This document shows, piece by piece, positions 571 to 42,470 of a stretch of DNA of 64,000 nt. Under the pieces are notes generated by a model. The model was not told the DNA's origin, did not search any database, and saw only the letters and a program-made list of their open reading frames with translations. The stretch lies in assembly GCF_057098645.1 (NCBI RefSeq), contig NZ_CM169472.1. One strand, given 5' to 3'. Numbering within the stretch: the stretch's first letter is position 1; the number at the start of each line of letters is the position of its first letter. The translations under genes were made by a program, and so were the position numbers.

Positions 571-3095
<2,525 letters not shown>

Positions 3096-3265
3096 CCTGA
3101 CGACTCCCCACCTGCTTTTTTATGATTCTGGCATAACCTGGCGATAGCGTACCGCAAAACAGCGATAATTTTATAATGGTGGCATGATAAGACGCGACTA
3201 TCATTCATTGCAGGCATTGGCACATCAGGCCGGATGTGATCCGGCCTGGTCTTAATGATACCCTT

Positions 3266-3448
3266 TCAAACTTCTTCCGCAGGACGACTCCCCTCCCCCG
3301 GAACAAGCTCGGTTTCATGAAAAGCTTCCCGCTTGACCCCGTAACCGTCATACCAACGACACTCAACCATACCGCTGGAGTATCCAGTGACAATCATCCG
3401 CGGGCCACCCTCTTTAACCGTAACTTCCTCACTAACCATAAAGCTCAT
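3266..3448 (-). CDS. yodC: Small protein YodC
   Basis: 60-aa ORF MSFMVSEEVTVKEGGPRMIVTGY... in the expected position between yedQ and yedI. Confidence 0.65.
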   Translation of the reverse strand: MSFMVSEEVTVKEGGPRMIVTGYSSGMVECRWYDGYGVKREAFHETELVPGEGSRPAEEV

Positions 3449-8822: not shown

Positions 8823-9127
8823 TTCATTAATGTGCGCGTGATCACACCAGCCGTTTAGCGCAACAATCATTGATGCCCCCTATCTTTCCGCTCAACTCAT
8901 AACATATTGATATACATTCATAATTTTCATGAATATTTATATTTAGAATTCATAATTCTGAATTATATTAAATGGATTGGAAACATTTTGAAATCTTTTA
9001 AATATATTTGTTACACGTAATCCTTAAAATAAAATGAACTTCATAGAATAGTATCCAAATGTGCTTTTTTTGGATAACGGCACTTATTGATATATTCATG
9101 AAGATTATAATCACAAGGGAATACATA

Positions 9128-10201
9128 ATGAAAAGAAAAGTTCTAGCAATGCTGGTCCCGGCGTTATTAGTTGCTGGCGCAGCAAATGCGGCTGAAATTT
9201 ATAATAAAGATGGCAATAAAGTTGATTTCTACGGCAAGATGGTTGGCGAACGCATCTGGTCAAATACTGATGATAATAACAGCGAAAACGAAGATACCTC
9301 CTATGCTCGTTTCGGTGTTAAAGGTGAAACCCAAATCACCAGCGAACTGACTGGTTTTGGTCAGTTTGAATACAACCTCGACGCCAGCAAGCCCGAAGGT
9401 GAAAACCAGGAAAAAACCCGTTTAACCTTCGCCGGTTTGAAATATAACGAGTTAGGATCATTTGACTATGGCCGTAACTACGGTGTTGCTTATGATGCCG
9501 CAGCTTATACCGATATGTTAGTTGAATGGGGTGGCGATTCCTGGGCTTCCGCTGACAACTTCATGAATGGTCGTACCAACGGTGTTGCAACCTACCGTAA
9601 CTATGATTTCTTTGGCCTGGTTGATGGTCTTGATTTTGCGATTCAGTACCAAGGCAAAAACAGCAACCGTAGCACTAAGAAACAAAATGGTGACGGCTAT
9701 GCGTTGTCTGTAGACTACAACATCGAAGGTTTTGGTTTTGTAGGTGCATATAGCAAATCTGATCGTACTAATGAACAAGCTAGTGACGGCTACGGTGATA
9801 ACGCTGAAGTGTGGTCATTAGCAGCCAAGTATGATGCAAATAATATCTATGCAGCAATGATGTACGGTGAAACCCGCAACATGACCGTTTTGGCTAATGA
9901 TCATTTTGCAAATAAAACCCAAAACTTTGAAGCTGTTGTACAGTATCAGTTCGACTTCGGTTTACGTCCGTCTTTAGGCTACGTATATTCCAAAGGCAAA
10001 GATCTTTATGCTCGTGATGGACATAAAGGTGTTGATGCTGACCGCGTAAATTATATCGAAGTTGGTACCTGGTACTACTTCAATAAGAACATGAACGTCT
10101 ACACAGCATACAAATTTAACCTGCTGGATAAAGACGATGCAGCGATTACCGATGCCGCAACTGATGACCAGTTTGCAGTTGGTATCGTCTACCAGTTCTA
10201 A
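9128..10201 (+). CDS. yedS: OmpC/OmpF-family general porin (yedS-like), apparently intact
   Basis: Signal peptide [21 protein letters not shown], porin-like beta-strand pattern, C-terminal ...VGIVYQF; an intrinsic terminator follows. Confidence 0.85.
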
Positions 10202-30760: not shown

Positions 30761-32527
30761 ATGAACACCACACTGACACCCGCAGATCTCGATCCCCGTC
30801 GGCAGGCCATGCTGCTGTACTTTCAGGGATACCGCGTAGCCCGCATTGCTGAAATGCTGGGCGAGAAAGTTGCAACCGTTCACAGCTGGAAAAAACGCGA
30901 CAAGTGGGGTGACTATGGGCCGCTGGATCAGATGCAGCTCACCACCGCCGCACGCTACTGCCAGCTCATTATGAAGGAGCACAAAGAAGGGAAAGATTTC
31001 AAAGAGATTGACCTGCTGGCGCGCCAGTCTGAGCGCCACGCGCGGATCGGCAAGTTTAACAATGGCGGCAACGAAGCCGACTTAAACCCTAACGTCGCCA
31101 ACCGCAACAAAGGCCCACGCCGTCAGCCGGAAAAGAATGTTTTCACCGATGAACAGATTGAGAAGCTGGAAGAAATCTTCCATTCCTCCATGTTCAACTA
31201 CCAGCGCCACTGGTGGGAAGCCGGAAAAACCAACCGCATCCGCAACCTGCTGAAGTCACGCCAGATCGGCGCGACCTTCTATTTTGCCCGTGAAGCCCTG
31301 ATTGACGCCCTGCTGACCGGACGTAACCAGATTTTCCTTTCTGCCAGTAAGGCACAGGCCCACGTCTTCAAACAGTACATCATCGACTTTGCCAAAGAAG
31401 TAGAGGTGGAGCTGAAAGGCGATCCGATGGTGCTTCCCAACGGGGCCACACTGTATTTCCTCGGCACCAATGCCCGCACGGCCCAGAGTTATCACGGCAA
31501 CCTGTATCTGGATGAATATTTCTGGATACCAAAATTCCAGGAGCTGCGCAAAGTGGCTTCCGGTATGGCTATTCACAAAAAATGGCGACAAACCTATTTT
31601 TCCACGCCATCCAGTCTGACACACAGTGCTTATCCGTTCTGGTCCGGTGCGCTGTTCAACCGTGGGCGCAACAAAGCCGATAAGGTGGACATCGACCTGT
31701 CCCACAGCAATCTGGCCCCCGGCCTGCTGTGCGCAGACGGGCAATACCGCCAGATAGTCACCGTGGAAGATGCGGTGCGCGGCGGCTGTAACCTGTTCGA
31801 CCTCGACCAGCTACGCATGGAGTACAGCCCGGACGAATACCAGAACCTGCTGATGTGCGAGTTTGTGGACGATCTCGCGTCCGTGTTTCCGCTCAGCGAG
31901 CTGCAGGCGTGCATGGTGGACAGTTGGGAAGTCTGGACCGACTTTCATGCACTGGCGCTGCGCCCGTTTGGCTGGCGCGAAGTGTGGATCGGTTATGACC
32001 CGGCAAAAGGCACGCAAAACGGCGACAGCGCCGGATGCGTGGTGGTGGCACCGCCAGCCGTGCCGGGTGGTAAGTTCCGCATTCTTGAGCGTCACCAGTG
32101 GCGCGGGATGGACTTCCGCGCCCAGGCTGACGCCATCAAAAAACTGACCGAACAGTACAACGTGACCTATATCGGTATCGACTCAACCGGCGTTGGTCAC
32201 GGGGTTTACGAGAACGTGAAAGCGTTTTTTCCTGCCGTCCGGGAGTTTGTCTACAACCCCAACGTTAAAAACGCCCTGGTACTCAAGGCCTACGACATTA
32301 TCAGCCACCGCCGTCTGGAGTTTGACGCCGGACACACCGACATAGCGCAGTCCTTTATGGCAATACGTCGCGCCACCACCGCCAGTGGCAACCGCCCGAC
32401 CTATGAAGCCAGCCGCAGCGAAGAAGCCAGCCACGCCGATCTGGCCTGGGCAACAATGCACGCACTGTTTAACGAACCGCTGCAGGGCGAATCCGCCAAT
32501 ACCAGCAATATTGTGGAGATTTTTTGA
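30761..32527 (+). CDS. Terminase large subunit (ATPase) gpP-like
   Basis: 588-aa ORF divergent from the capsid operon, overlapping Q start. Confidence 0.85.
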   Translation: MNTTLTPADLDPRRQAMLLYFQGYRVARIAEMLGEKVATVHSWKKRDKWGDYGPLDQMQLTTAARYCQLIMKEHKEGKDFKEIDLLARQSERHARIGKFNNGGNEADLNPNVANRNKGPRRQPEKNVFTDEQIEKLEEIFHSSMFNYQRHWWEAGKTNRIRNLLKSRQIGATFYFAREALIDALLTGRNQIFLSASKAQAHVFKQYIIDFAKEVEVELKGDPMVLPNGATLYFLGTNARTAQSYHGNLYLDEYFWIPKFQELRKVASGMAIHKKWRQTYFSTPSSLTHSAYPFWSGALFNRGRNKADKVDIDLSHSNLAPGLLCADGQYRQIVTVEDAVRGGCNLFDLDQLRMEYSPDEYQNLLMCEFVDDLASVFPLSELQACMVDSWEVWTDFHALALRPFGWREVWIGYDPAKGTQNGDSAGCVVVAPPAVPGGKFRILERHQWRGMDFRAQADAIKKLTEQYNVTYIGIDSTGVGHGVYENVKAFFPAVREFVYNPNVKNALVLKAYDIISHRRLEFDAGHTDIAQSFMAIRRATTASGNRPTYEASRSEEASHADLAWATMHALFNEPLQGESANTSNIVEIF

Positions 32528-33552
32528 TGGGAAAGAGTAAGAAGAACCGCACTGCGGCGACGAAACAGATCCAGCTTAAAAGTCAAACTACAGCCGAAGC
32601 ATTCAGCTTCGGCGATCCCGTTCCTGTTCTGGACCGCCGAGAACTGCTGGATTATGTGGAATGCGTACAGATGGACCGCTGGTATGAGCCGCCCGTCAGC
32701 TTTGACGGACTGGCGCGCACCTTCCGCGCTGCCGTGCATCATAGTTCCCCGATTGCAGTAAAGTGCAACATTCTGACCAGCACCTACATCCCTCACCCGC
32801 TGCTCAGCCAGCAGGCTTTTTCGCGTTTTGTGCAGGACTATCTGGTATTTGGTAACGCCTACCTGGAGAAACGCACGAACCGCTTCGGTGAAGTTATCGC
32901 CCTTGAACCTGCCCTGGCAAAATATACCCGACGCGGGTTAGACCTGGATACCTACTGGTTTGTGCAATACGGTATGACCACGCAGCCATATCAGTTCACG
33001 AAAGGCAGCATCTTTCATCTGATGGAACCGGACATCAACCAGGAGATCTACGGCCTGCCCGGTTATCTTTCTGCCATTCCGTCAGCCCTGCTCAACGAGT
33101 CCGCCACGCTGTTCCGCCGAAAGTATTACATTAACGGCAGTCATGCTGGCTTCATCATGTACATGACCGATGCTGCGCAGAACCAGGAGGATGTGAACAA
33201 CCTCCGCAACGCAATGAAAAGCGCCAAAGGTCCAGGCAACTTCCGCAACCTGTTTATGTACTCACCTAACGGCAAAAAGGATGGTCTTCAGATTATCCCG
33301 TTGTCAGAAGTCGCGGCGAAGGATGAATTTCTGAATATCAAAAATGTCAGCCGCGACGACATGATGGCTGCGCACCGTGTACCACCACAAATGATGGGGA
33401 TAATGCCTAATAATGTTGGGGGATTTGGGGATGTGGAGAAAGCCTGCAAAGTATTTGTTAGAAATGAGTTAACAGTATTACAAAAAAAAATACTGGAACT
33501 GAACACTTGGTTAGATGATGATGTAATTAATTTTAATGAGTATATGCTTTGA
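32524..33552 (+). CDS. Portal protein gpQ-like
   Basis: 342-aa ORF following P, as in the P2 P-Q operon. Confidence 0.85.
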   Translation: MMGKSKKNRTAATKQIQLKSQTTAEAFSFGDPVPVLDRRELLDYVECVQMDRWYEPPVSFDGLARTFRAAVHHSSPIAVKCNILTSTYIPHPLLSQQAFSRFVQDYLVFGNAYLEKRTNRFGEVIALEPALAKYTRRGLDLDTYWFVQYGMTTQPYQFTKGSIFHLMEPDINQEIYGLPGYLSAIPSALLNESATLFRRKYYINGSHAGFIMYMTDAAQNQEDVNNLRNAMKSAKGPGNFRNLFMYSPNGKKDGLQIIPLSEVAAKDEFLNIKNVSRDDMMAAHRVPPQMMGIMPNNVGGFGDVEKACKVFVRNELTVLQKKILELNTWLDDDVINFNEYML

Positions 33553-33579
33553 TGAAATAGGGGGCTAACGCCCCTATTT

Positions 33580-34362
33580 TTAATCATTTTCTGGTTTGTT
33601 TGAAGTTTCATTTACAGGCTGGATCACATCCTTATTAAAATGGCGCGTTTGTTCGACTTTACCTTTTCTAGAAAGGCCTGCACCTTCTAAAATTGAATCG
33701 ATTTTATCGCCACCATTAGCTAAGAAATGCTTAAAATTTTCCGATGATAACATTTCCATTATAGGCGATGAATGGGTAGCTTCTTCAACAAATCTTAATG
33801 GCGGCTCCTCCAGTCGAGTAAGTGCATTACCAAATAACCTTTGGGTAAAGTCGCTATCAAGTTGGACAGCTTCTCTTCTATATCCCTCATAAGCTTTGGA
33901 TACTGAGGCCTTGAATTCATAATCCTCTGCCAATCTGAATCGCTGACCAATTTGTTTCGTTGCTAACCAAGCAAACCATAATGGTGCTCCAACACTTAAA
34001 ATGGAGAGTAAAAGTTGAATAGCTAACTTTATACCTGATGCGTCAGGGTTTGACAGATATGCTTCGAGAGCATGTAAACGCGTATAACCAACAGCAGCAC
34101 CTGCAACCAAAGCACCTATTAGTCCACATACCCACCAACGTATGCTCCGGTTTAATTTTTCTGCTTTATCTTGAAATGCCCCAGCCAAACCTTTTGAAGT
34201 AGTAGTTCTAAATGCCTCTTCACATTTATTAATATAACCCTGAGCTTCTTCACGGAGAGATTGTAAATAATCTTTTGCATCCTTGCTTGCATTCTGTTTC
34301 AGCGCCAAAATTTCTTGTCTGGCCTCATCTACGATTTTGGAGTTCTCTTCAGTCTCTTTAAG
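33580..34362 (-). pseudogene. 3' part of an IS1-disrupted cargo gene (two-TM protein of unknown function)
   Basis: Frame continues from the 8-bp IS1 target duplication; encodes two hydrophobic helices (WWVCGLIGALVAGAAVGY, LLLSILSVGAPLWFAWLA) and a C-terminal soluble domain. Confidence 0.6.
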
Positions 34363-34377
34363 GGTAATGACTCCAAC

Positions 34378-34881
34378 TTATTGATAGTGTTTTATGTTCA
34401 GATAATGCCCGATGACTTTGTCATGCAGCTCCACCGATTTTGAGAACGACAGCGACTTCCGTCCCAGCCGTGCCAGGTGCTGCCTCAGATTCAGGTTATG
34501 CCGCTCAATTCGCTGCGTATATCGCTTGCTGATTACGTGCAGCTTTCCCTTCAGGCGGGATTCATACAGCGGCCAGCCATCCGTCATCCATATCACCACG
34601 TCAAAGGGTGACAGCAGGCTCATAAGACGCCCCAGCGTCGCCATAGTGCGTTCACCGAATACGTGCGCAACAACCGTCTTCCGGAGCCTGTCATACGCGT
34701 AAAACAGCCAGCGCTGGCGCGATTTAGCCCCGACGTATCCCCACTGTTCGTCCATTTCCGCGCAGACGATGACGTCACTGCCCGGCTGTATGCGCGAGGT
34801 TACCGACTGCGGCCTGAGTTTTTTAAATGGCGGAAAATCGTGTTGAGGCCAACGCCCATAATGCGGGCGGTTGCCCGGCAT
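34378..34881 (-). CDS. insB: IS1 transposase InsB
   Basis: 167-aa [21 protein letters not shown]... matches IS1 InsB. Confidence 0.9.
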
Positions 34882-35075
34882 CCAACGCCATTCATGGCCA
34901 TATCAATGATTTTCTGGTGCGTACCGGGTTGAGAAGCGGTGTAAGTGAACTGCAGTTGCCATGTTTTACGGCAGTGAGAGCAGAGATAGCGCTGATGTCC
35001 GGCGGTGCTTTTGCCGTTACGCACCACCCCGTCAGTAGCTGAACAGGAGGGACAGCTGATAGAAACAGAAGCCAC
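34800..35075 (-). CDS. insA: IS1 InsA
   Basis: 91-aa ORF with zinc-finger [16 protein letters not shown]... matches IS1 InsA. Confidence 0.9.
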
Positions 35076-35130
35076 TGGAGCACCTCAAAAACACCATCAT
35101 ACACTAAATCAGTAAGTTGGCAGCATCACC

Positions 35131-35747
35131 TCTTTAAGCATGCCATTAATATTTCTGCAATGCTCAACTGCGCTATTGTAAACATTTTTAACTTCATCAT
35201 TTGTTTCACGAAGCATTTTTACTGTTGTCGGTAGATTCTCGGCTGCATCATATGCTTCATTTATAGTTTTAATTTTCTCTTCTATATTACCAGTTTCAGC
35301 TGCAATTGCAGATATACCTGAATTATATAATTCTAATCTGCGTAAAATTTGCTTTGGTAATAAATTTCTATCTTTCAGCCTCTCAAATGAAAAAAGGTCA
35401 TTAATCCTATGAGAGATATATAACATTGAAATAACATAAGATGGTATAGCGGTCTGTTGAACTGATGCGTTACCATTGTTTATATGATTAATATTTTGCT
35501 GAGCATGATCCAGAGTGTAAATGAGCGCATCAATTACTGCAATGTCATCTGAAGATGGTACAAATTCCTGCATCTGATTAATTCTATCAGATAACATTTT
35601 TGGTAGTTCTATCAGATCCTCTTTATGTAAAAAAGGAAATGTGTACGGCCCAAGGTTTATAAAATCTTCCACAGGGAATACAAGACCATTAAGTGTTGTA
35701 TGTAAATTATCTAGTTTCTCTTTTAATTCAGTTAGTTTTTCGTTCAT
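35131..35747 (-). pseudogene. 5' part of the IS1-disrupted cargo gene (N-terminal helical domain)
   Basis: About 205 native codons (MNEKLTELKEKLDNL...NINGMLKE), then the reading frame enters the IS1 inverted repeat. Confidence 0.6.
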
Positions 35748-35841
35748 TAAAAAAATCCTTTATGACGCTATAGAACTTCCAGAGTAATCCGATAAAGATA
35801 TCATAAGACAATATTTTGGTATAAACACTTATTGCGCGCGC

Positions 35842-35860
35842 TCGTATCCCCGCCACGCCT
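35842..35860. other. Candidate phage cos site (186-like cohesive end)
   Basis: Minus-strand GGCGTGGCGGGGATACGAG shares its first 13 nt with the recalled 186 cohesive end and resembles that of P2. Confidence 0.45.
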
Positions 35861-36032
35861 GCCCGCTTTATGTAGTGGTTTTCATGCACCTGCATGATCT
35901 ACGCAAAAGCCCGCCAGAACTGGCGGGCCTTAACACAAAAGATCCTCAAACGATCATGCGATCTCATGCAGCATAGACATGCGCGCTTATGCAGAATGTG
36001 CAAAATCGTAACATACTCAGTAAGCGTGAAAA

Positions 36033-36710
36033 CTAGAACGTGACAGCCTTGTCAAAGCCAGAAATAATTGTATAAGAAATAGACGAGTTATCAGCCTTGT
36101 TCACTTTGAACTTGGCACCTTTGTAAGCGATAACGTCACTTCCCTTAGAATCTACAGAAAAATCTGTTGTAAATGCTGCACGAGCCATATCGTTTGCAAA
36201 TTCACGATAGGTGAACTTCATTACACCGCCTGCATTTCCATTGTATTCGATAGTCTTAACCAATGAGTTACTAACTCGACACAGCCCATCAGGAACACGT
36301 TTGATAGAAATTTCTGATGCAGTATAAGAAGTACCATTTGGCGGTGATATCTCATTTTTTGCAGCATCGTAACTAACATAATCAACATAGTTACCGATTT
36401 GCCCATAGAGATTTTTTAACGCAACAGCTTGAGGGTTATGATAATTGCGGTAAATTCCATTCCCCTCACTGCAATATGTACCAGCAGCGATAGAAGACAA
36501 TGCACCATTAGCCGCACCAAGTTCTAGTACGTCCGTTTTAAATCCAGTAGCAGATGTGATAATGGGATCGCCCATGTAGGCGGTAGCACTTTGCCCAATA
36601 GCAGGCTTCACCACTTCAATAGCAGTGATATTTCGGTTAGAAGCATGTGGCACGCAACCAGTTAGGATTACAGCAAGAGATATTGGTAACGCTACATTAT
36701 TAATTTTCAT
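36033..36710 (-). CDS. Lipoprotein of unknown function (prophage cargo next to cos)
   Basis: Signal peptide with lipobox MKINNVALPISLAVILTGC and a Gly/Ser/Thr-rich mature domain; AT-rich. Confidence 0.7.
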   Translation of the reverse strand: MKINNVALPISLAVILTGCVPHASNRNITAIEVVKPAIGQSATAYMGDPIITSATGFKTDVLELGAANGALSSIAAGTYCSEGNGIYRNYHNPQAVALKNLYGQIGNYVDYVSYDAAKNEISPPNGTSYTASEISIKRVPDGLCRVSNSLVKTIEYNGNAGGVMKFTYREFANDMARAAFTTDFSVDSKGSDVIAYKGAKFKVNKADNSSISYTIISGFDKAVTF

Positions 36711-36823
36711 TTTTAGCCTATTATTCTTTTCTTGACAAAAAACAAGGCGATATCCGATTGACATCGCCTCTCACTCATATGTAACCCTTTTTGATTAGTA
36801 AAAACAAGCGTCTATTGACAAAA

Positions 36824-37410: not shown

Positions 37411-39416
37411 TTAATACAGGTTCCGCCACTTATCATCTTCCTGCAAACGCTGGTTCCGATAGAAGATACGCAGGCCTGCTCCTGACGGAATACTGCCGCC
37501 GCGAAGGAGTAAATCGACCTCTTTCTCGCTGCCATCAAATCCTCTGGATTTCAGTTCATAGACGAGCTGCTGTCGTTGATGGTCTGTAATTCGCTGTTTG
37601 TAGTCTCTACGCCGTTTCGGTTTCACCAGACGTAACCTTGCAGCCAGTTCCCGGCGCTCCTTTTTGTTCATACTGTGCAGGTAATCGTGCAACTCCTTGT
37701 CATCCATGCGGGTAAAGTCCGTTCTGGGGTCCCCATCAGCTGATTTATCTTTCTCCTGTTGGTTCAAATTTTCAGCAAGGGGACAGTTATTGCCACGAGT
37801 CCAAGGGGCGCAAGCGCCCTGGTCGGCTGCCGCCTCCTGAACGTCAACGGCCTTACGAACCATTTTCCACTTCACTGCATGAGTACAAATCTTGCCCTCT
37901 GCAATGGGTGACCAGATGCCATAAATACGAATACCGTGATCGCCATAGGCGGTCGGCTCTTCGTTAATTTCATAAGCTGTTCTGATAAGGTGATATTTGC
38001 GGGGAACCAGTACGCCGCCCTGCTTCATAATGTAGGTGGCAAAACAACCAGCATCAGCAGCAGCCAGAATGGCATCAAGGCGCGGGTTATCCAGTACCGG
38101 CGCACCTGCTTTTTTGTCACCCTGTTGCCTTGCCGCCTGACCAGCCAGCAATCGCAATTCACGGTACGCCTGACGCCCCGGAATACCAAAGAAGCGAAAT
38201 TGCTGAACACGATGCAGAGACGCCCAGGCATTAACGTATTCAGCGTTATCACGCAGGGATTTACCCGTTTCCTTGCTGATTTCGCCAGCCAGACCACGCC
38301 CATCAATGTTCTTACTGATGTATTTCGCGATGTAGCTTGTCGGCGTTCCTTTTCGCGGGTTAATCAGCTCAGACTTAAAGCGCGGCCCCGTGTTATTGCC
38401 CAGCTCCTCACGGTCTTCACGGATAGCAAACTTACGCAACAATGCAGTAATGGCGCGGCGGTCTTTTTTGCGCATGAAACACAACAGGTGCCAGTGAACT
38501 GTGCCGTCATGATGCGGCTCAGCCACCCGCACGCCATACCAGCGCAACCCGGCTTTGTGCATCGCCTTACGAAATGCAGCAAACATACCGACCAGATAAT
38601 CGCTGCTTTGTCTTACCGTCGCATTTGTCCATGTCGGGTTGGGTCTGCCGTTATTGAGCGTGGAATGGAAACGTGACGGACAGGTAATGGTGTAGAAAAC
38701 GGCGCAGTCACCGCGCATTTCCGCGATAAGCTCCAGACCTTTAACACAGGCCATCATCTCATTGCGACGATGCGCCGGGTTGCTGCTGCTGGCGTTTACC
38801 ACATCTTCCATATCCAGCGCGTCTCCGTCTTCGTTCACCAGTTCATGAGAACGGAAAAACTCCAGTGACTTACGGCGCTGCTCACGTTTATGCATCACGG
38901 CTTCATAGCTGACATAGGGAGATGCTTTTTTGCTGACCAGGCAGACAGCACGCAACTGCTCTTCCCGCCATTCGCAACGCATCTTCCACAATTTCCGATA
39001 CCACCAGTCGGCGCACAGCATACGCGCCAGCGAACCCGGAATGAGTTCATAGGGCACGGGTTTACGGCGGTTTCTTTTCCGACGGAGTTGCTCAAACGCA
39101 GGCGGGATGACATCCAGACGCAGGGTTTCCGCTGCCACCTTTTCCCATGTCTTGCGGATTTCTTCTGGCTTAACGTCATCGGTGGCATACAAATCACCAC
39201 AAGCTGCATCAAGGCACATACTCATATGCGCAGCTACCAAGGTGGACAGGCGTTTCACCTGATCCTGACTCATTTCAGGCAGGATCAGCAGGCCGTCCAG
39301 CCCTTCATGGCTTGCCATAAAGCGAAAAGATGCAGATAGCTGACTGTCGCGTACATGCTCCAGTCGTTCCAGACATGGCTTAATCGTCTCACGTAAATAG
39401 CGGGAATAAGCCTTTG
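37411..39416 (-). pseudogene. Replication initiation endonuclease gene A, 3' portion (split by IS21-family insertion)
   Basis: 635-aa ORF with rolling-circle initiator motif ([11 protein letters not shown]); frame stays open upstream of the annotated Met as far as the IS boundary. Confidence 0.8.
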
Positions 39417-39515: not shown

Positions 39516-40271
39516 TTAACGCGTTTTTTCGCTGCTTTCCACTACCGGGGGATTTTTCCTCAGTGACTCTCCCTGAAGGACCACTCGGTGTGAGTTATGT
39601 ACCAGTCTGTCCAGGATGGCATCTGCTGTTGTTGGGTTCTCCATCAGACCATGCCATTTATCTACCGGGAACTGGCTTACCACTATCGTGCTGCTTTGTC
39701 CGTAACGATCCTCTATGAGCTCCAGAAGGTCATTACACTGGGCGTTACTTAACTGTTCCAGCCCCAGATCGTCCAGGATTAGAACCTGTATTTTTTGCAA
39801 CTGTTTCAGATATTTCAGCCAGCTGCCATCAACACGTCCCTGAGCCAGTTGTTCCAGTAATCGCCCGGTTCTACAGTACCGGACGCTGTGTTTCTGTCGA
39901 CATGCCTGTTCGCCCAGCGCATTGGCTATCCAGCTCTTGCCACATCCTGTCGGACCGGTTATCAGCAGGTTTTTCCTGTGGGTTATGTAGTGGCCGTTCA
40001 GCAGTTCTCTCATCTGTTCAGCCCGCAGACCTCTTGAGGCCGGATAGCGCAGCCCTTCCGGTGTTGCCTGGTATTTCAGGCCGGCATTTTTTCTCAACCG
40101 TGCCACACGGCTGTTTTCCCTGCTCAGAAGCTCGTCATCAACCAGCAGCGTCAGCCTTTCCTCGAACGACAGTTCGTCGTAGGTCTGAGGCGTTTCCCGC
40201 TGCCGTATCAGGCTCCCGGCCATCGCCGGGAGTTTCAGTTGGGTCAGTTTGTTTAACAGGTTATCACTCAT
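39516..40271 (-). CDS. istB: IS21-family helper ATPase IstB
   Basis: Walker A (GPTGCGKS) and Walker B (LILDDLG) motifs; start chosen at MSDNLLNKL. Confidence 0.8.
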   Translation of the reverse strand: MSDNLLNKLTQLKLPAMAGSLIRQRETPQTYDELSFEERLTLLVDDELLSRENSRVARLRKNAGLKYQATPEGLRYPASRGLRAEQMRELLNGHYITHRKNLLITGPTGCGKSWIANALGEQACRQKHSVRYCRTGRLLEQLAQGRVDGSWLKYLKQLQKIQVLILDDLGLEQLSNAQCNDLLELIEDRYGQSSTIVVSQFPVDKWHGLMENPTTADAILDRLVHNSHRVVLQGESLRKNPPVVESSEKTR

Positions 40272-40287
40272 ACTGTTGTTCCTTCTG

Positions 40288-41823
40288 TCAGTGGTAGTAG
40301 CCCGGACCACGCAGGTTTTCATGCTCTGAAGCATATGCCGGATGTTGTTCGCCCTGGCGGGATAATGGAAGCTCCAGGTTCTCCCGATGGTGACGCAGCA
40401 GATTGTCGATAAAGCGTCTGTCAGGGGCGTTATAGTGCAGGGCAACGTAACAGGCCTTTTCCAGCCGTTCCGGGCCGTATTTTTTCTGAAGTGCCAGCAG
40501 CCCCAGAACTGCACGATAAGCCAGTTCCGGATGGGGTTTTGCCTTCAGCATGGATTCAACCACCCGGCCTGTGGACGGGCCCGTACGTTTTCCCTGCTCG
40601 ATCAGGCGTTCCGGTGTCCATGTCCCGTGCTGCCGGTGGCGCTCTGGCATGTGAAGCGGATTGGTTGTGTGTTTATATTCATGTGTGCTGCGCGGATGTT
40701 GCGCCACACACTGCCCCTTGTGCCAGAGCTGTACCACCGACTGCCCCGCCTTCAGTGACAGACGCTGACCGACCAGTTCGTGTGGAACGGAGTACCAGTG
40801 ACGGGCATATTCAACGTGGTAGTCAGGGCCAACCTTCACAGCTTTGTATTCCGTGTATTCATAAGGTGCCAGAGGCAGCGGAGAGAGTGCTGGCGCATCC
40901 AGTATGCGGAAGCGTTCTGCACGGGTTTGATTGCCGTACCCCTTCATTGGCCGGTTATTCATGTCTGTCAGTAACTCCCTAAGGCGCGCATTCAGCGCCC
41001 TGAGCGTGTGGAAGGTTTCATTACGGATGCGGGCAAGAAGCCATCGTTCAACGATGAGGACGCCGTTTTCTGCTTTTGGTTTATCTTTAGGTTTGCGTGG
41101 TCGGGCCGGGATGATAACCGTGCCATAGTGCTCAGCCAGTGCCTGATAACTGTCGTTGATGACAGGCTCATATCGATCGGCCTTTTTCACTGCGCTTCTG
41201 AGGTTATCGGGGATGAGCAGCTTCGGTACGCCGCCCAGGAAGGTCAGGCAACGGCTGTGGGCATTTAACCATGACATCATGTCCTGACCTTCGCACGCTT
41301 CAACGTAGGTATAGTTGGACGCCCCCATTACGGCCACGAAGATTGCCACGCGGCGTATCTCACCGGTGTCCGGATTAATAACAGGAACCGTAGGACCACA
41401 GAAGTCGATAAAAAGCTTTTCGCCGGCACGATGCTCCTGGCGCATGGAGAGACGTCGCGTTTTTTTCCACTCCCGGTAGCAACGGCAGAAGTGCGAGTAT
41501 CCCATCGCTTTGTTACCCGCCTGTGCCTTGTATTCCATCCACAACAGTTGCCGCGTCACACCTGGTTTTCTCATTTCCGTATCGAAGTACAACATGTCAG
41601 GCATTACAAGCTCTGATGCAAAGGTGTCTTTGGGCGGAAAAATGAGTTTCTCCAGCGTGTCATGGGATATATCAGCAGGTAATGGCCATGACAGAGAAGA
41701 GGCTTTGAAGCGGGCAAGAACCTCAAAAACGGTTGAGGCGCTGATGTGTAACGTCAGTCCGATACAACGGTTAGTCAGCTTCTTGTCGAACTTGAGCTGA
41801 AGGATCTTAAAACAGGTTTCCAT
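40288..41823 (-). CDS. istA: IS21-family transposase IstA
   Basis: About 512-aa product with integrase-type catalytic core; start chosen at METCFKILQL. Confidence 0.8.
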   Translation of the reverse strand: METCFKILQLKFDKKLTNRCIGLTLHISASTVFEVLARFKASSLSWPLPADISHDTLEKLIFPPKDTFASELVMPDMLYFDTEMRKPGVTRQLLWMEYKAQAGNKAMGYSHFCRCYREWKKTRRLSMRQEHRAGEKLFIDFCGPTVPVINPDTGEIRRVAIFVAVMGASNYTYVEACEGQDMMSWLNAHSRCLTFLGGVPKLLIPDNLRSAVKKADRYEPVINDSYQALAEHYGTVIIPARPRKPKDKPKAENGVLIVERWLLARIRNETFHTLRALNARLRELLTDMNNRPMKGYGNQTRAERFRILDAPALSPLPLAPYEYTEYKAVKVGPDYHVEYARHWYSVPHELVGQRLSLKAGQSVVQLWHKGQCVAQHPRSTHEYKHTTNPLHMPERHRQHGTWTPERLIEQGKRTGPSTGRVVESMLKAKPHPELAYRAVLGLLALQKKYGPERLEKACYVALHYNAPDRRFIDNLLRHHRENLELPLSRQGEQHPAYASEHENLRGPGYYH

Positions 41824-42055
41824 AGTGCTCCTGGATTTTCTCTTTCTGGACATTGACGTCTCCACTGGTTTAAACACGGCAATGGAGACTGTGGTGAAAA
41901 GAGTTAATTCCCGGAGTGACTGGCAGGATGCCAATCAATGATCGGAAGCATGCCAAATCGTGATCGATTGTGATGCCAAACTGTGATCGGAGATGGATGC
42001 CAAATCATGATCGATTCGAATGCCAAACTGCGATCGATTCAGATGCCATTTTGCA

Positions 42056-42470
42056 CCTTTGGCCTGCCCAGGCTGCTGAAGTATTCAATACGTTGCATCA
42101 GCGGCTTGCTGATATGGGAAGGCTGGGCGTTGACGTCCGCCAGAATGACCATGTCTGAATTAAAACGCTGCTGCTCATGCGCCAGCTTTGCCCGGCTAAT
42201 GAGCTTATCCTGCTCCATTTCGCGCTGGACAGGATCACGTGATTCATTAAAGAAATAACGCTCCCAGACCTGATCACTCAGTGCCTCGCGGCGCAACTGT
42301 TCCTGCTCGTTATCGGCAGCGTACAGAGTGATCAGGTTTGAAAGCGTAGAAACCGGCGCAACTTCCGCCGGGTCCAGATAAGGGTTAATGGCCTTTTTCG
42401 GGCTGTTCCATGAGAACGCTGCGGCAGCCTCGTTAAAGCCGCAGCAGTTGTTCATATCGGCATGACTCAT
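42056..42470 (-). pseudogene. Replication gene A, 5' portion (upstream of IS insertion)
   Basis: ORF is in frame with 37411-39416 once the IS and one copy of the target duplication are removed; its last 8 codons in the track come from the IS end. Confidence 0.6.

Follow-up and report, generated by a model that had tools for sequence, protein, structure and literature searches.

A 64,000-nucleotide (nt) stretch of contig NZ_CM169472.1 (NCBI RefSeq assembly GCF_057098645.1), here called the window, contains a P2/186-like prophage with a cargo gene between the portal gene Q and cos. This cargo gene is best described as the dead copy, split by the insertion sequence (IS) IS1, of an uncharacterised and widespread candidate defence gene, apparently a distant variant of the AbiZ kind. 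The chances are about even that the intact protein is a stand-alone inner-membrane effector of AbiZ type, i.e., a single-gene anti-phage system acting by abortive infection (Abi) or exclusion, and an anti-phage function of some kind is somewhat better favored than that. The preliminary description of this DNA, made from its letters, had suggested an anti-phage role, and this hypothesis is strengthened, though not demonstrated, by the Abi genes found in the same slot of sibling phages, by the hotspot location, by the defence genes next to homologues and by a membrane core remotely related to an AbiZ-linked family.

The cargo gene lies on the minus strand in two parts. The 5' part (35139..35747) holds codons 1-203, encoding an N-terminal helical bundle and the start of a coiled coil, and the 3' part (33580..34362) holds codons 204-463 and the stop and is 99.9% identical to ECHS_RS04510 of Escherichia coli HS. 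Between them, on the same strand, lies IS1 (34363..35130; transposase model NF033558, 1.8e-25 and 6.4e-42), with insA at 34800-35075 and insB' at 34378-34881. The element is exactly 768 bp long and ends in GGTAATGACTCC... and ...GGCAGCATCACC. All the marks by which IS1 is recognized, namely a length of 768 bp, terminal inverted repeats GGTAATGA.../GGTGATGC..., insA and insB' open reading frames (ORFs) and a target duplication of 8–9 bp, are present at 34363-35130. The 8-bp duplication seen earlier, TCTTTAAG, stands at both junctions, its left copy at 34355..34362 and its right copy at 35131..35138. Joining 35747..35139 to 34362..33580 on the minus strand yields a single ORF of 463 amino acids (aa) and a stop (1,392 nt), with the insertion point at residues 203-205, where a 23-residue stretch absent from most relatives begins. 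The preliminary description had proposed one AT-rich gene of ~1.4 kb cut by IS1. Excision indeed restores an ORF that is found intact in other E. coli genomes, with 36% G+C against 50% for the window; the single in-frame ORF stands, and its size, put at ~462 aa, is exactly 463 aa.

The cargo gene is dead in the window strain because IS1 parts the N-terminal 203 codons from the membrane part. The 5' ORF as it stands runs into IS1 and encodes a 212-aa soluble N-terminal fragment, which is at most what the interrupted locus could be expected to make; an N-terminally truncated membrane fragment could arise from the ORF 34308-33580 (TTG start) if it is transcribed out of IS1. Both halves are still identical to intact alleles, so the insertion, in itself ordinary, is judged to be recent.

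The joined frame is not a product of chance: among 5,426 complete E. coli genomes, 12 carry the restored 1,392-nt gene without a break, five of them as a 100.0% identical copy and the others with an identity of 99.8% or more. All 12 copies sit between the portal gene and cos, and the IS-free homologues that were to be sought in other P2-like prophages were therefore found in the same Q-cos slot. The copy of E. coli HS is annotated as a hypothetical protein (WP_001003256.1, ECHS_RS04510), and HS DNA matches both window flanks at 99.9% identity, with an overlap of 9 bases at the duplication only. The insertion had also been read as a sign that the gene is costly. This part of the preliminary description was not upheld, and a cost inferred from the insertion was rejected: all 13 other E. 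coli copies, both alleles counted, are intact, and a second element, of the IS21 family (istA 40288-41934, istB 39516-40514), has entered replication gene A, which is essential. General IS activity in a decaying prophage therefore explains the IS1 insertion equally well. The second element separates an N-terminal fragment of gene A (42039-42470) from a C-terminal fragment (37411-39318), the intact protein of E. coli HS having 804 aa, and the prophage, thus struck twice, is replication-defective.

The slot itself is well delimited. On one side stands Q (32524..33552, plus strand; TIGR01540 portal, 1.8e-107), preceded by the terminase ATPase gene (30761-32527), and on the other a conserved cos region of 200 nt (35832..36031), which Fels-2 and 44 Klebsiella P2-like phage records share at 98.5% identity. 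A cos-like 19-mer on the minus strand of this region (GGCGTGGCGGGGATACGAG, 35841-35859) shares 14 of 19 bases with P2 cosL, including 12 of the first 13. The cargo gene is convergent with Q, and a G+C-rich hairpin between them (33554..33580), where each strand has terminator-like sites, resembles a terminator acting in both directions. Upstream of the gene are 84 cassette-specific nt (35748..35831, minus strand) with an AAGGA ribosome-binding site. They are presumed to hold the promoter, and no strong sigma-70 consensus was found in them. Sibling phages with other cargo do not share this upstream region, homology to Fels-2 and the Klebsiella phages beginning only at 35832-35834. The homology of Q to its counterparts in Fels-2, KP12 and the Klebsiella phage stops at 33470, 33444, and 33534, respectively, and the final ~100 nt of Q (33445-33552) are AT-rich and diverge from sibling phages. 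The cassette boundaries would accordingly fall at about 33445-33535 on the left and about 35831 on the right. The swap junction seems to lie inside the 3' end of Q rather than in the intergenic region, because it is there that similarity to Fels-2 and KP12 is lost.

In P2, nothing but the tQ terminator separates cosL (1-19) from Q (187-1221), in line with the preliminary description, and its view of a cargo slot is confirmed by the different genes that siblings hold between shared flanks. Fels-2 (NC_010463.1) has STM2723.1 there (1737-3434 of the locus, minus strand), a 565-aa protein annotated as hypothetical that is a full-length AbiU homologue (PADLOC 2.7e-112), and Klebsiella phage ST11-VIM1phi8.4 has an AIPR/AbiU-like gene (PADLOC 1.8e-34), both with the same flanks and orientation as the window gene. 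Phage KP12 carries a three-gene cassette, all of unknown genes, and hundreds of contigs have 186-like prophages in which a 65%-identical allele of the window gene fills this very slot. These comparisons indicate a slot that is truly exchangeable by cassette swapping between conserved flanks. The whole gpA-gpQ interval of P2, cos included, has been described as a hotspot and a reservoir of anti-phage systems (Rousset et al., 2022). Cargo of this cos-proximal hotspot is recognized as one or more variable genes between replication gene A and portal gene Q, adjoining cos, with conserved flanks and with content differing among relatives, and the cargo gene shows each of these features. It thus shares its hotspot with old and tin of P2 and with the systems of Rousset et al. 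(2022), and its exact Q-cos slot with the AbiU gene of Fels-2; the proteins are unrelated, and what they have in common is position, not mechanism. The Q side of cos is thereby shown to be a separate swap site in Fels-2/186-like phages, in which known Abi genes, such as that of Fels-2, are still annotated as hypothetical.

Adjacency to cos and to the packaging genes could also point to a gene of the phage cycle, for instance an accessory to packaging, or a regulator that times lysis or resembles an antiholin, and in the same direction point the holin interactions proposed for AbiZ-like proteins and a Providencia phage homologue located upstream of genes that may include the lysis module. Such a role is very unlikely: P2 and most P2-like phages lack the gene, which converges on the late operon, has an upstream region of its own and has homologues outside phages. 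A lysis or structural role was rejected on the ground that the gene, absent from P2, is swapped for unrelated genes in siblings.

The AlphaFold2 model of the restored protein (predicted local distance difference test, pLDDT, 84.8) starts with a confident N-terminal helical bundle (residues 1-120) and a lower-confidence linker. A continuous helix (172-306) follows, in which a coiled coil passes into the first transmembrane (TM) helix, and then a second helix (313-368) comprising TM2 and the most conserved segment, before short helices and a disordered tail. By hydrophobicity the TM helices extend over residues ~277-299 and ~314-337, encoded at 34075-34143 and 33961-34032 in the 3' part of the gene, where the most conserved core (residues 330-410; 33742-33984) also lies. 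The anatomy sketched earlier, a helical N-terminal part, two TM helices and a soluble C-terminal part, is borne out, and likewise no catalytic motif was found in the restored protein. Clusters of Lys/Arg stand before TM1 and after TM2 and the connecting loop has ~13 residues, so that by the positive-inside rule both large parts, and with them both ends of the protein, are predicted to be cytoplasmic.

Conservation is distributed unevenly along the protein. Invariant positions are L262, F266, L288, W332, W335, E349, D350, Y351, K354, G363, L379, R386, P391, R393, and P403. Identity to the 65% slot allele is 58% over residues 1-125, 42% over 126-245, 90% over 246-410 and 32% in the tail. A variable cytoplasmic front half joined to a conserved membrane core is the pattern that would be expected of a sensor-effector fusion.

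The protein belongs to a large family. Representatives of 1,466 clusters at 50% identity match at E<1e-3, 425 of them at E<1e-30, and nearly all have 420-470 aa and align over their whole length. Members were named from Enterobacterales, Pseudomonas, Xanthomonas, Stenotrophomonas, Delftia, Aeromonas, Thiothrix and Flavobacterium, and when single genomes of each species were scanned, Leptospira, Bacteroidota, alpha- and betaproteobacteria, Nitrospinota, Verrucomicrobia and further groups joined them; every member bears the annotation hypothetical. Pfam, NCBIfam and PADLOC searches with the query, the last of which had been recommended for the restored ORF, returned coiled-coil noise and no meaningful match. 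The earlier failure to place the protein in a named family thus stands as regards these collections and is amended by its assignment to PHROG 34659 (unknown function; 6e-87, with a weaker match to phrog_30912) and by a probable distant kinship with AbiZ/DUF6161-like proteins. Coiled-coil noise was also all that Pfam returned for the 115 aligned members, the family consensus and the WP_135638427 family introduced below, apart from one member matching DUF6161. PADLOC gave SMC-like coiled-coil noise only (JetC, LmuB, PbeC) for eight family members and for the DS-34 protein (below), and a profile search of PDB sequences gave coiled coils only. With Foldseek, AFDB50 yielded uncharacterised homologues only and BFVD nothing below E 1e-3. 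Neither the accession WP_001003256.1 nor fragments of its sequence appear in the accessible portions of the literature, the supplement text of Rousset et al. (2022), a 2026 P2/P4 preprint and DefensePredictor.

Two other classes of membrane-active proteins were considered. A SLATT effector with two TM helices (2TM) was rejected, because the query and the 115 aligned members match none of the SLATT_1-6 Pfam profiles and no conserved partner gene, which for a SLATT effector would be one generating a nucleotide signal, occurs in the 78 loci described below; the only SLATT-related trace is a weak TIGR04402 match (E 0.27). A secreted alpha-pore-forming toxin of the ClyA/XaxA type, aimed at other cells, is extremely improbable; such toxins usually have a partner subunit, and the restored protein matches ClyA-family toxins neither in sequence nor in fold.

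AbiZ reportedly has two predicted TM helices. The cargo protein is like it in being encoded by a single mobile gene, in carrying a TM hairpin in the C-terminal half with a long helical region before it and in having no catalytic domain and no solved structure that resembles it; AbiZ-type proteins (~300-450 aa) are, by architecture, non-enzymatic products of a single mobile gene whose C-terminal half holds two TM helices. AbiZ, from plasmid pTR2030 of Lactococcus lactis (Durmaz and Klaenhammer, 2007), makes infected cells lyse prematurely, probably through an increase in membrane permeability brought about jointly with the phage holin, and is without recognizable domain or structural match, according to a 2026 review (PMC13064643).

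The connection to AbiZ passes through another family. The DefensePredictor supplement (PMC13092281) equates AbiZ with the DUF6161 family and scores the 453-aa protein WP_135638427.1 as defensive with a log-odds of 13.4, relating it to AbiZ/DUF6161 at an HHpred probability of 98.8%. Three full-length 453-aa relatives of this protein were recovered from IMG/VR viral contigs, two of them at a contig end, a position that fits cargo at a prophage edge. In hhalign the cargo family aligns to the WP_135638427 family with 93.4% probability (E 2.6e-7) over the pre-TM1 helix, TM1, TM2 and the EDYAFKASVA motif, and the motif ERNFQEEYAFKSAVALTLNSYA of WP_135638427.1 is close to QRFRLAEDYEFKASVSKAYEGY of the cargo protein. 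Length and layout are also the same, whereas similarity is confined to ~100 core residues, the N-terminal domains being unrelated at the sequence level, and the defence role of either family is a predicted one. The WP_135638427 family does not match Pfam DUF6161, and its alignment to the Vibrio 'DUF6161 (2TM)' family (Rousset et al., 2022, Table S7) is collinear but weak (45.6%). Among the 115 aligned members of the cargo family, the one DUF6161 match has an E-value of 2e-6. A further system of comparable layout is DS-34 of E. coli, a validated DefensePredictor system composed of a CI-like repressor and a 323-aa 2TM protein (WP_000377448.1) that is AbiZ-like by HHpred (95.8%; PMC13092281). DS-34 is, like the cargo gene, an E. 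coli prophage-associated system with a coiled coil and a 2TM hairpin, and unlike it is a two-gene unit with a shorter protein. The cargo family also departs from AbiZ in its post-TM2 motif WFAWLATKQIGQRFRLAEDYAFKASVAKAYEGYRRE, which defines a separate, much larger branch centered on Gram-negative bacteria, and in going undetected by the Pfam DUF6161 and PADLOC models.

Superinfection exclusion at the membrane, in which the protein would act like Sie, Imm or HK97 gp15 and keep an incoming genome out while the cell survives, would suit a partnerless gene for an inner-membrane protein, encoded by a prophage in a hotspot that also carries the exclusion genes old and tin of P2. We consider it quite unlikely. 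Only ~13 residues face the periplasm and both large domains are predicted to be cytoplasmic, and a long variable sensor-like cytoplasmic part on a conserved core is better suited to intracellular sensing. The family, moreover, spans phyla with very different phages and envelopes, and the closest relatives detected for it have a link to AbiZ, which acts by abortive infection.

The surroundings of homologues in 78 species loci contain no conserved partner gene, and the neighbors that recur are tyrosine integrases (10), serine recombinases (6), UmuC (4), and UmuD (3). Since no other neighbor family recurs, the gene is taken to act alone, and it travels with mobile DNA. The recurrence of UmuC/UmuD may reflect shared carriage on integrative elements, and one aligned member has a Pfam IMS match (3e-5). 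Homologues were found in the temperate (cI-repressor-encoding) Providencia phage PSTCR8lys, between early genes and terminase; in a prophage, adjoining Dam, a methylase and an integrase; in a Delftia prophage, following its lysis genes; in an AlpA-type island of Pectobacterium; and next to a type III restriction-modification system. In a random sample of 25 of the 78 loci, taken without a matched control, the closest flanking gene with 150 aa or more was compared with PADLOC in both directions. In five loci this gene has, on one side, a strong and near full-length match, the matches being to AbiEii (1e-105), NsnA/PD-T4-2_A (6e-67), a type III methylase (2e-167), a type IIG/ISP restriction-modification enzyme (E = 0), and a PD-T4-6-like kinase (4e-30). 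Matches at a further three loci are weak or partial. By published figures, known defence genes make up ~0.4-0.65% of all genes, and 2% of E. coli genes lie within ten genes of a known defence gene. The nearest neighbors thus seem to be enriched for known defence genes, which is to be taken as support rather than as a statistic.

Several observations weigh against an AbiZ-type effector. Every member of the cargo family is known from sequence alone, and in E. coli the gene is rare (13 of 5,426 complete genomes). The link to AbiZ passes via one intermediate family and a published HHpred value and not via AbiZ itself. Neither the query nor the family consensus matches DUF6161, even at E up to 10; the query and eight relatives have no AbiZ match in PADLOC, the presence of an AbiZ model in PADLOC v2 being unconfirmed; and the hhalign comparisons of the cargo family with the Vibrio 'DUF6161 (2TM)' family and with the DS-34 protein are not significant. 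The 25-locus neighborhood sample is set against no matched random-gene set. Several homologues, moreover, have surroundings that look like core genome. In three unrelated lineages, represented by Xanthomonas campestris, Pseudomonas sp. R-28-1W-6, and Flavobacterium segetis, the homologue stands directly downstream, on the same strand, of nrdA and nrdB of class I ribonucleotide reductase, reflecting either a common insertion point or a functional link, and in Aeromonas it lies between fdhD and an fdh operon. Because the direct DUF6161, PADLOC, DS-34 and Vibrio-family comparisons failed, the protein is not filed under AbiZ/DUF6161; it is a probable distant relative of AbiZ with the same architecture, the homology being indirect.

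The nrdAB and fdhD-fdh sites, together with the 42 of 50 sampled neighbors that have no PADLOC match, would also suit a membrane protein without a role in defence, serving in envelope remodelling, stress or nucleotide metabolism and sometimes carried by phages as a moron. This is unlikely in our estimate, given that no operon partner is conserved in the 78 loci, in which integrases and recombinases are frequent nearby. The patchy, low-frequency distribution of the gene, the Abi genes that sibling phages hold in the same slot and the rapid evolution of the N-terminal half likewise argue against it.

If the cargo protein is an AbiZ-type effector, a course of action can be proposed. The helical hairpin would anchor it in the inner membrane with both ends in the cytoplasm, where the fast-evolving N-terminal four-helix bundle and the coiled coil would detect some cue from the phage or keep the protein in an inactive state. 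Once infection occurs, the hairpin and the post-TM2 helix (W332, W335, E349-D350-Y351, K354, G363, R386, R393) would change state or oligomerise, and the altered core would raise membrane permeability, perhaps in concert with the phage holin, a cooperation suggested for AbiZ, leading to depolarisation or premature lysis. The infected cell would then die before phage progeny mature.

The MLKL four-helix bundle, the coiled-coil (CC) domains of plant nucleotide-binding leucine-rich repeat receptors (NLRs; Rx, Sw-5b) and the fungal HeLo domain (HET-S) are membrane-permeabilising executioners of cell death. It is conceivable, as a long shot, that the family is a widespread and so far unrecognized single-protein immune effector whose bundle is a true MLKL/HeLo/CC-NLR counterpart set on a membrane hairpin, a self-contained 'necroptosis-like' executioner that phages trade via the cos-proximal slot. 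On that reading of the bundle, the recurrent position of homologues behind ribonucleotide reductase genes might mean that they sense when phages attack the supply of deoxynucleoside triphosphates.

Should the intact gene protect, a very large and phylogenetically broad single-gene family would join the defence repertoire, one that the current detectors (PADLOC, Pfam, NCBIfam) miss, and the poorly understood AbiZ-type membrane effectors would be extended from lactococci to Gram-negative bacteria and their temperate phages. An experimental handle is provided by the intact copy in the well-studied E. coli HS, by same-slot alleles with divergent N-terminal halves and by the natural knockout in the window. 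The gene is therefore a good and cheap experimental candidate, and one that will not surprise specialists who expect unknown defence genes in the hotspot.

Past cos, the window prophage continues with a 243-aa gene (36033-36764, minus strand; phrog_1353, 4e-105), then a DinI-like gene and replication gene A. The product of the 243-aa gene has an N-terminus that looks hydrophobic and lipoprotein-like; the gene is also present in E. coli HS and in Fels-2 (STM2726) and has no PADLOC match. In related prophages its position is taken by a DUF8087 gene, a 141-aa gene or nothing, which suggests a second variable site independent of the Q-side slot, and among the prophages with the 65% allele the gene across cos varies independently of the Q-side cargo. 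Elsewhere in the window, an ORF at 10793-11341 matches the glyoxalase III HchA model, which has 287 positions, over its first 183 positions only (4.5e-95). An OmpC/OmpF-like porin gene (9059-10201) stands just upstream of this ORF, which ends close to the start of the phage tail genes, and hchA may be truncated at the prophage boundary.

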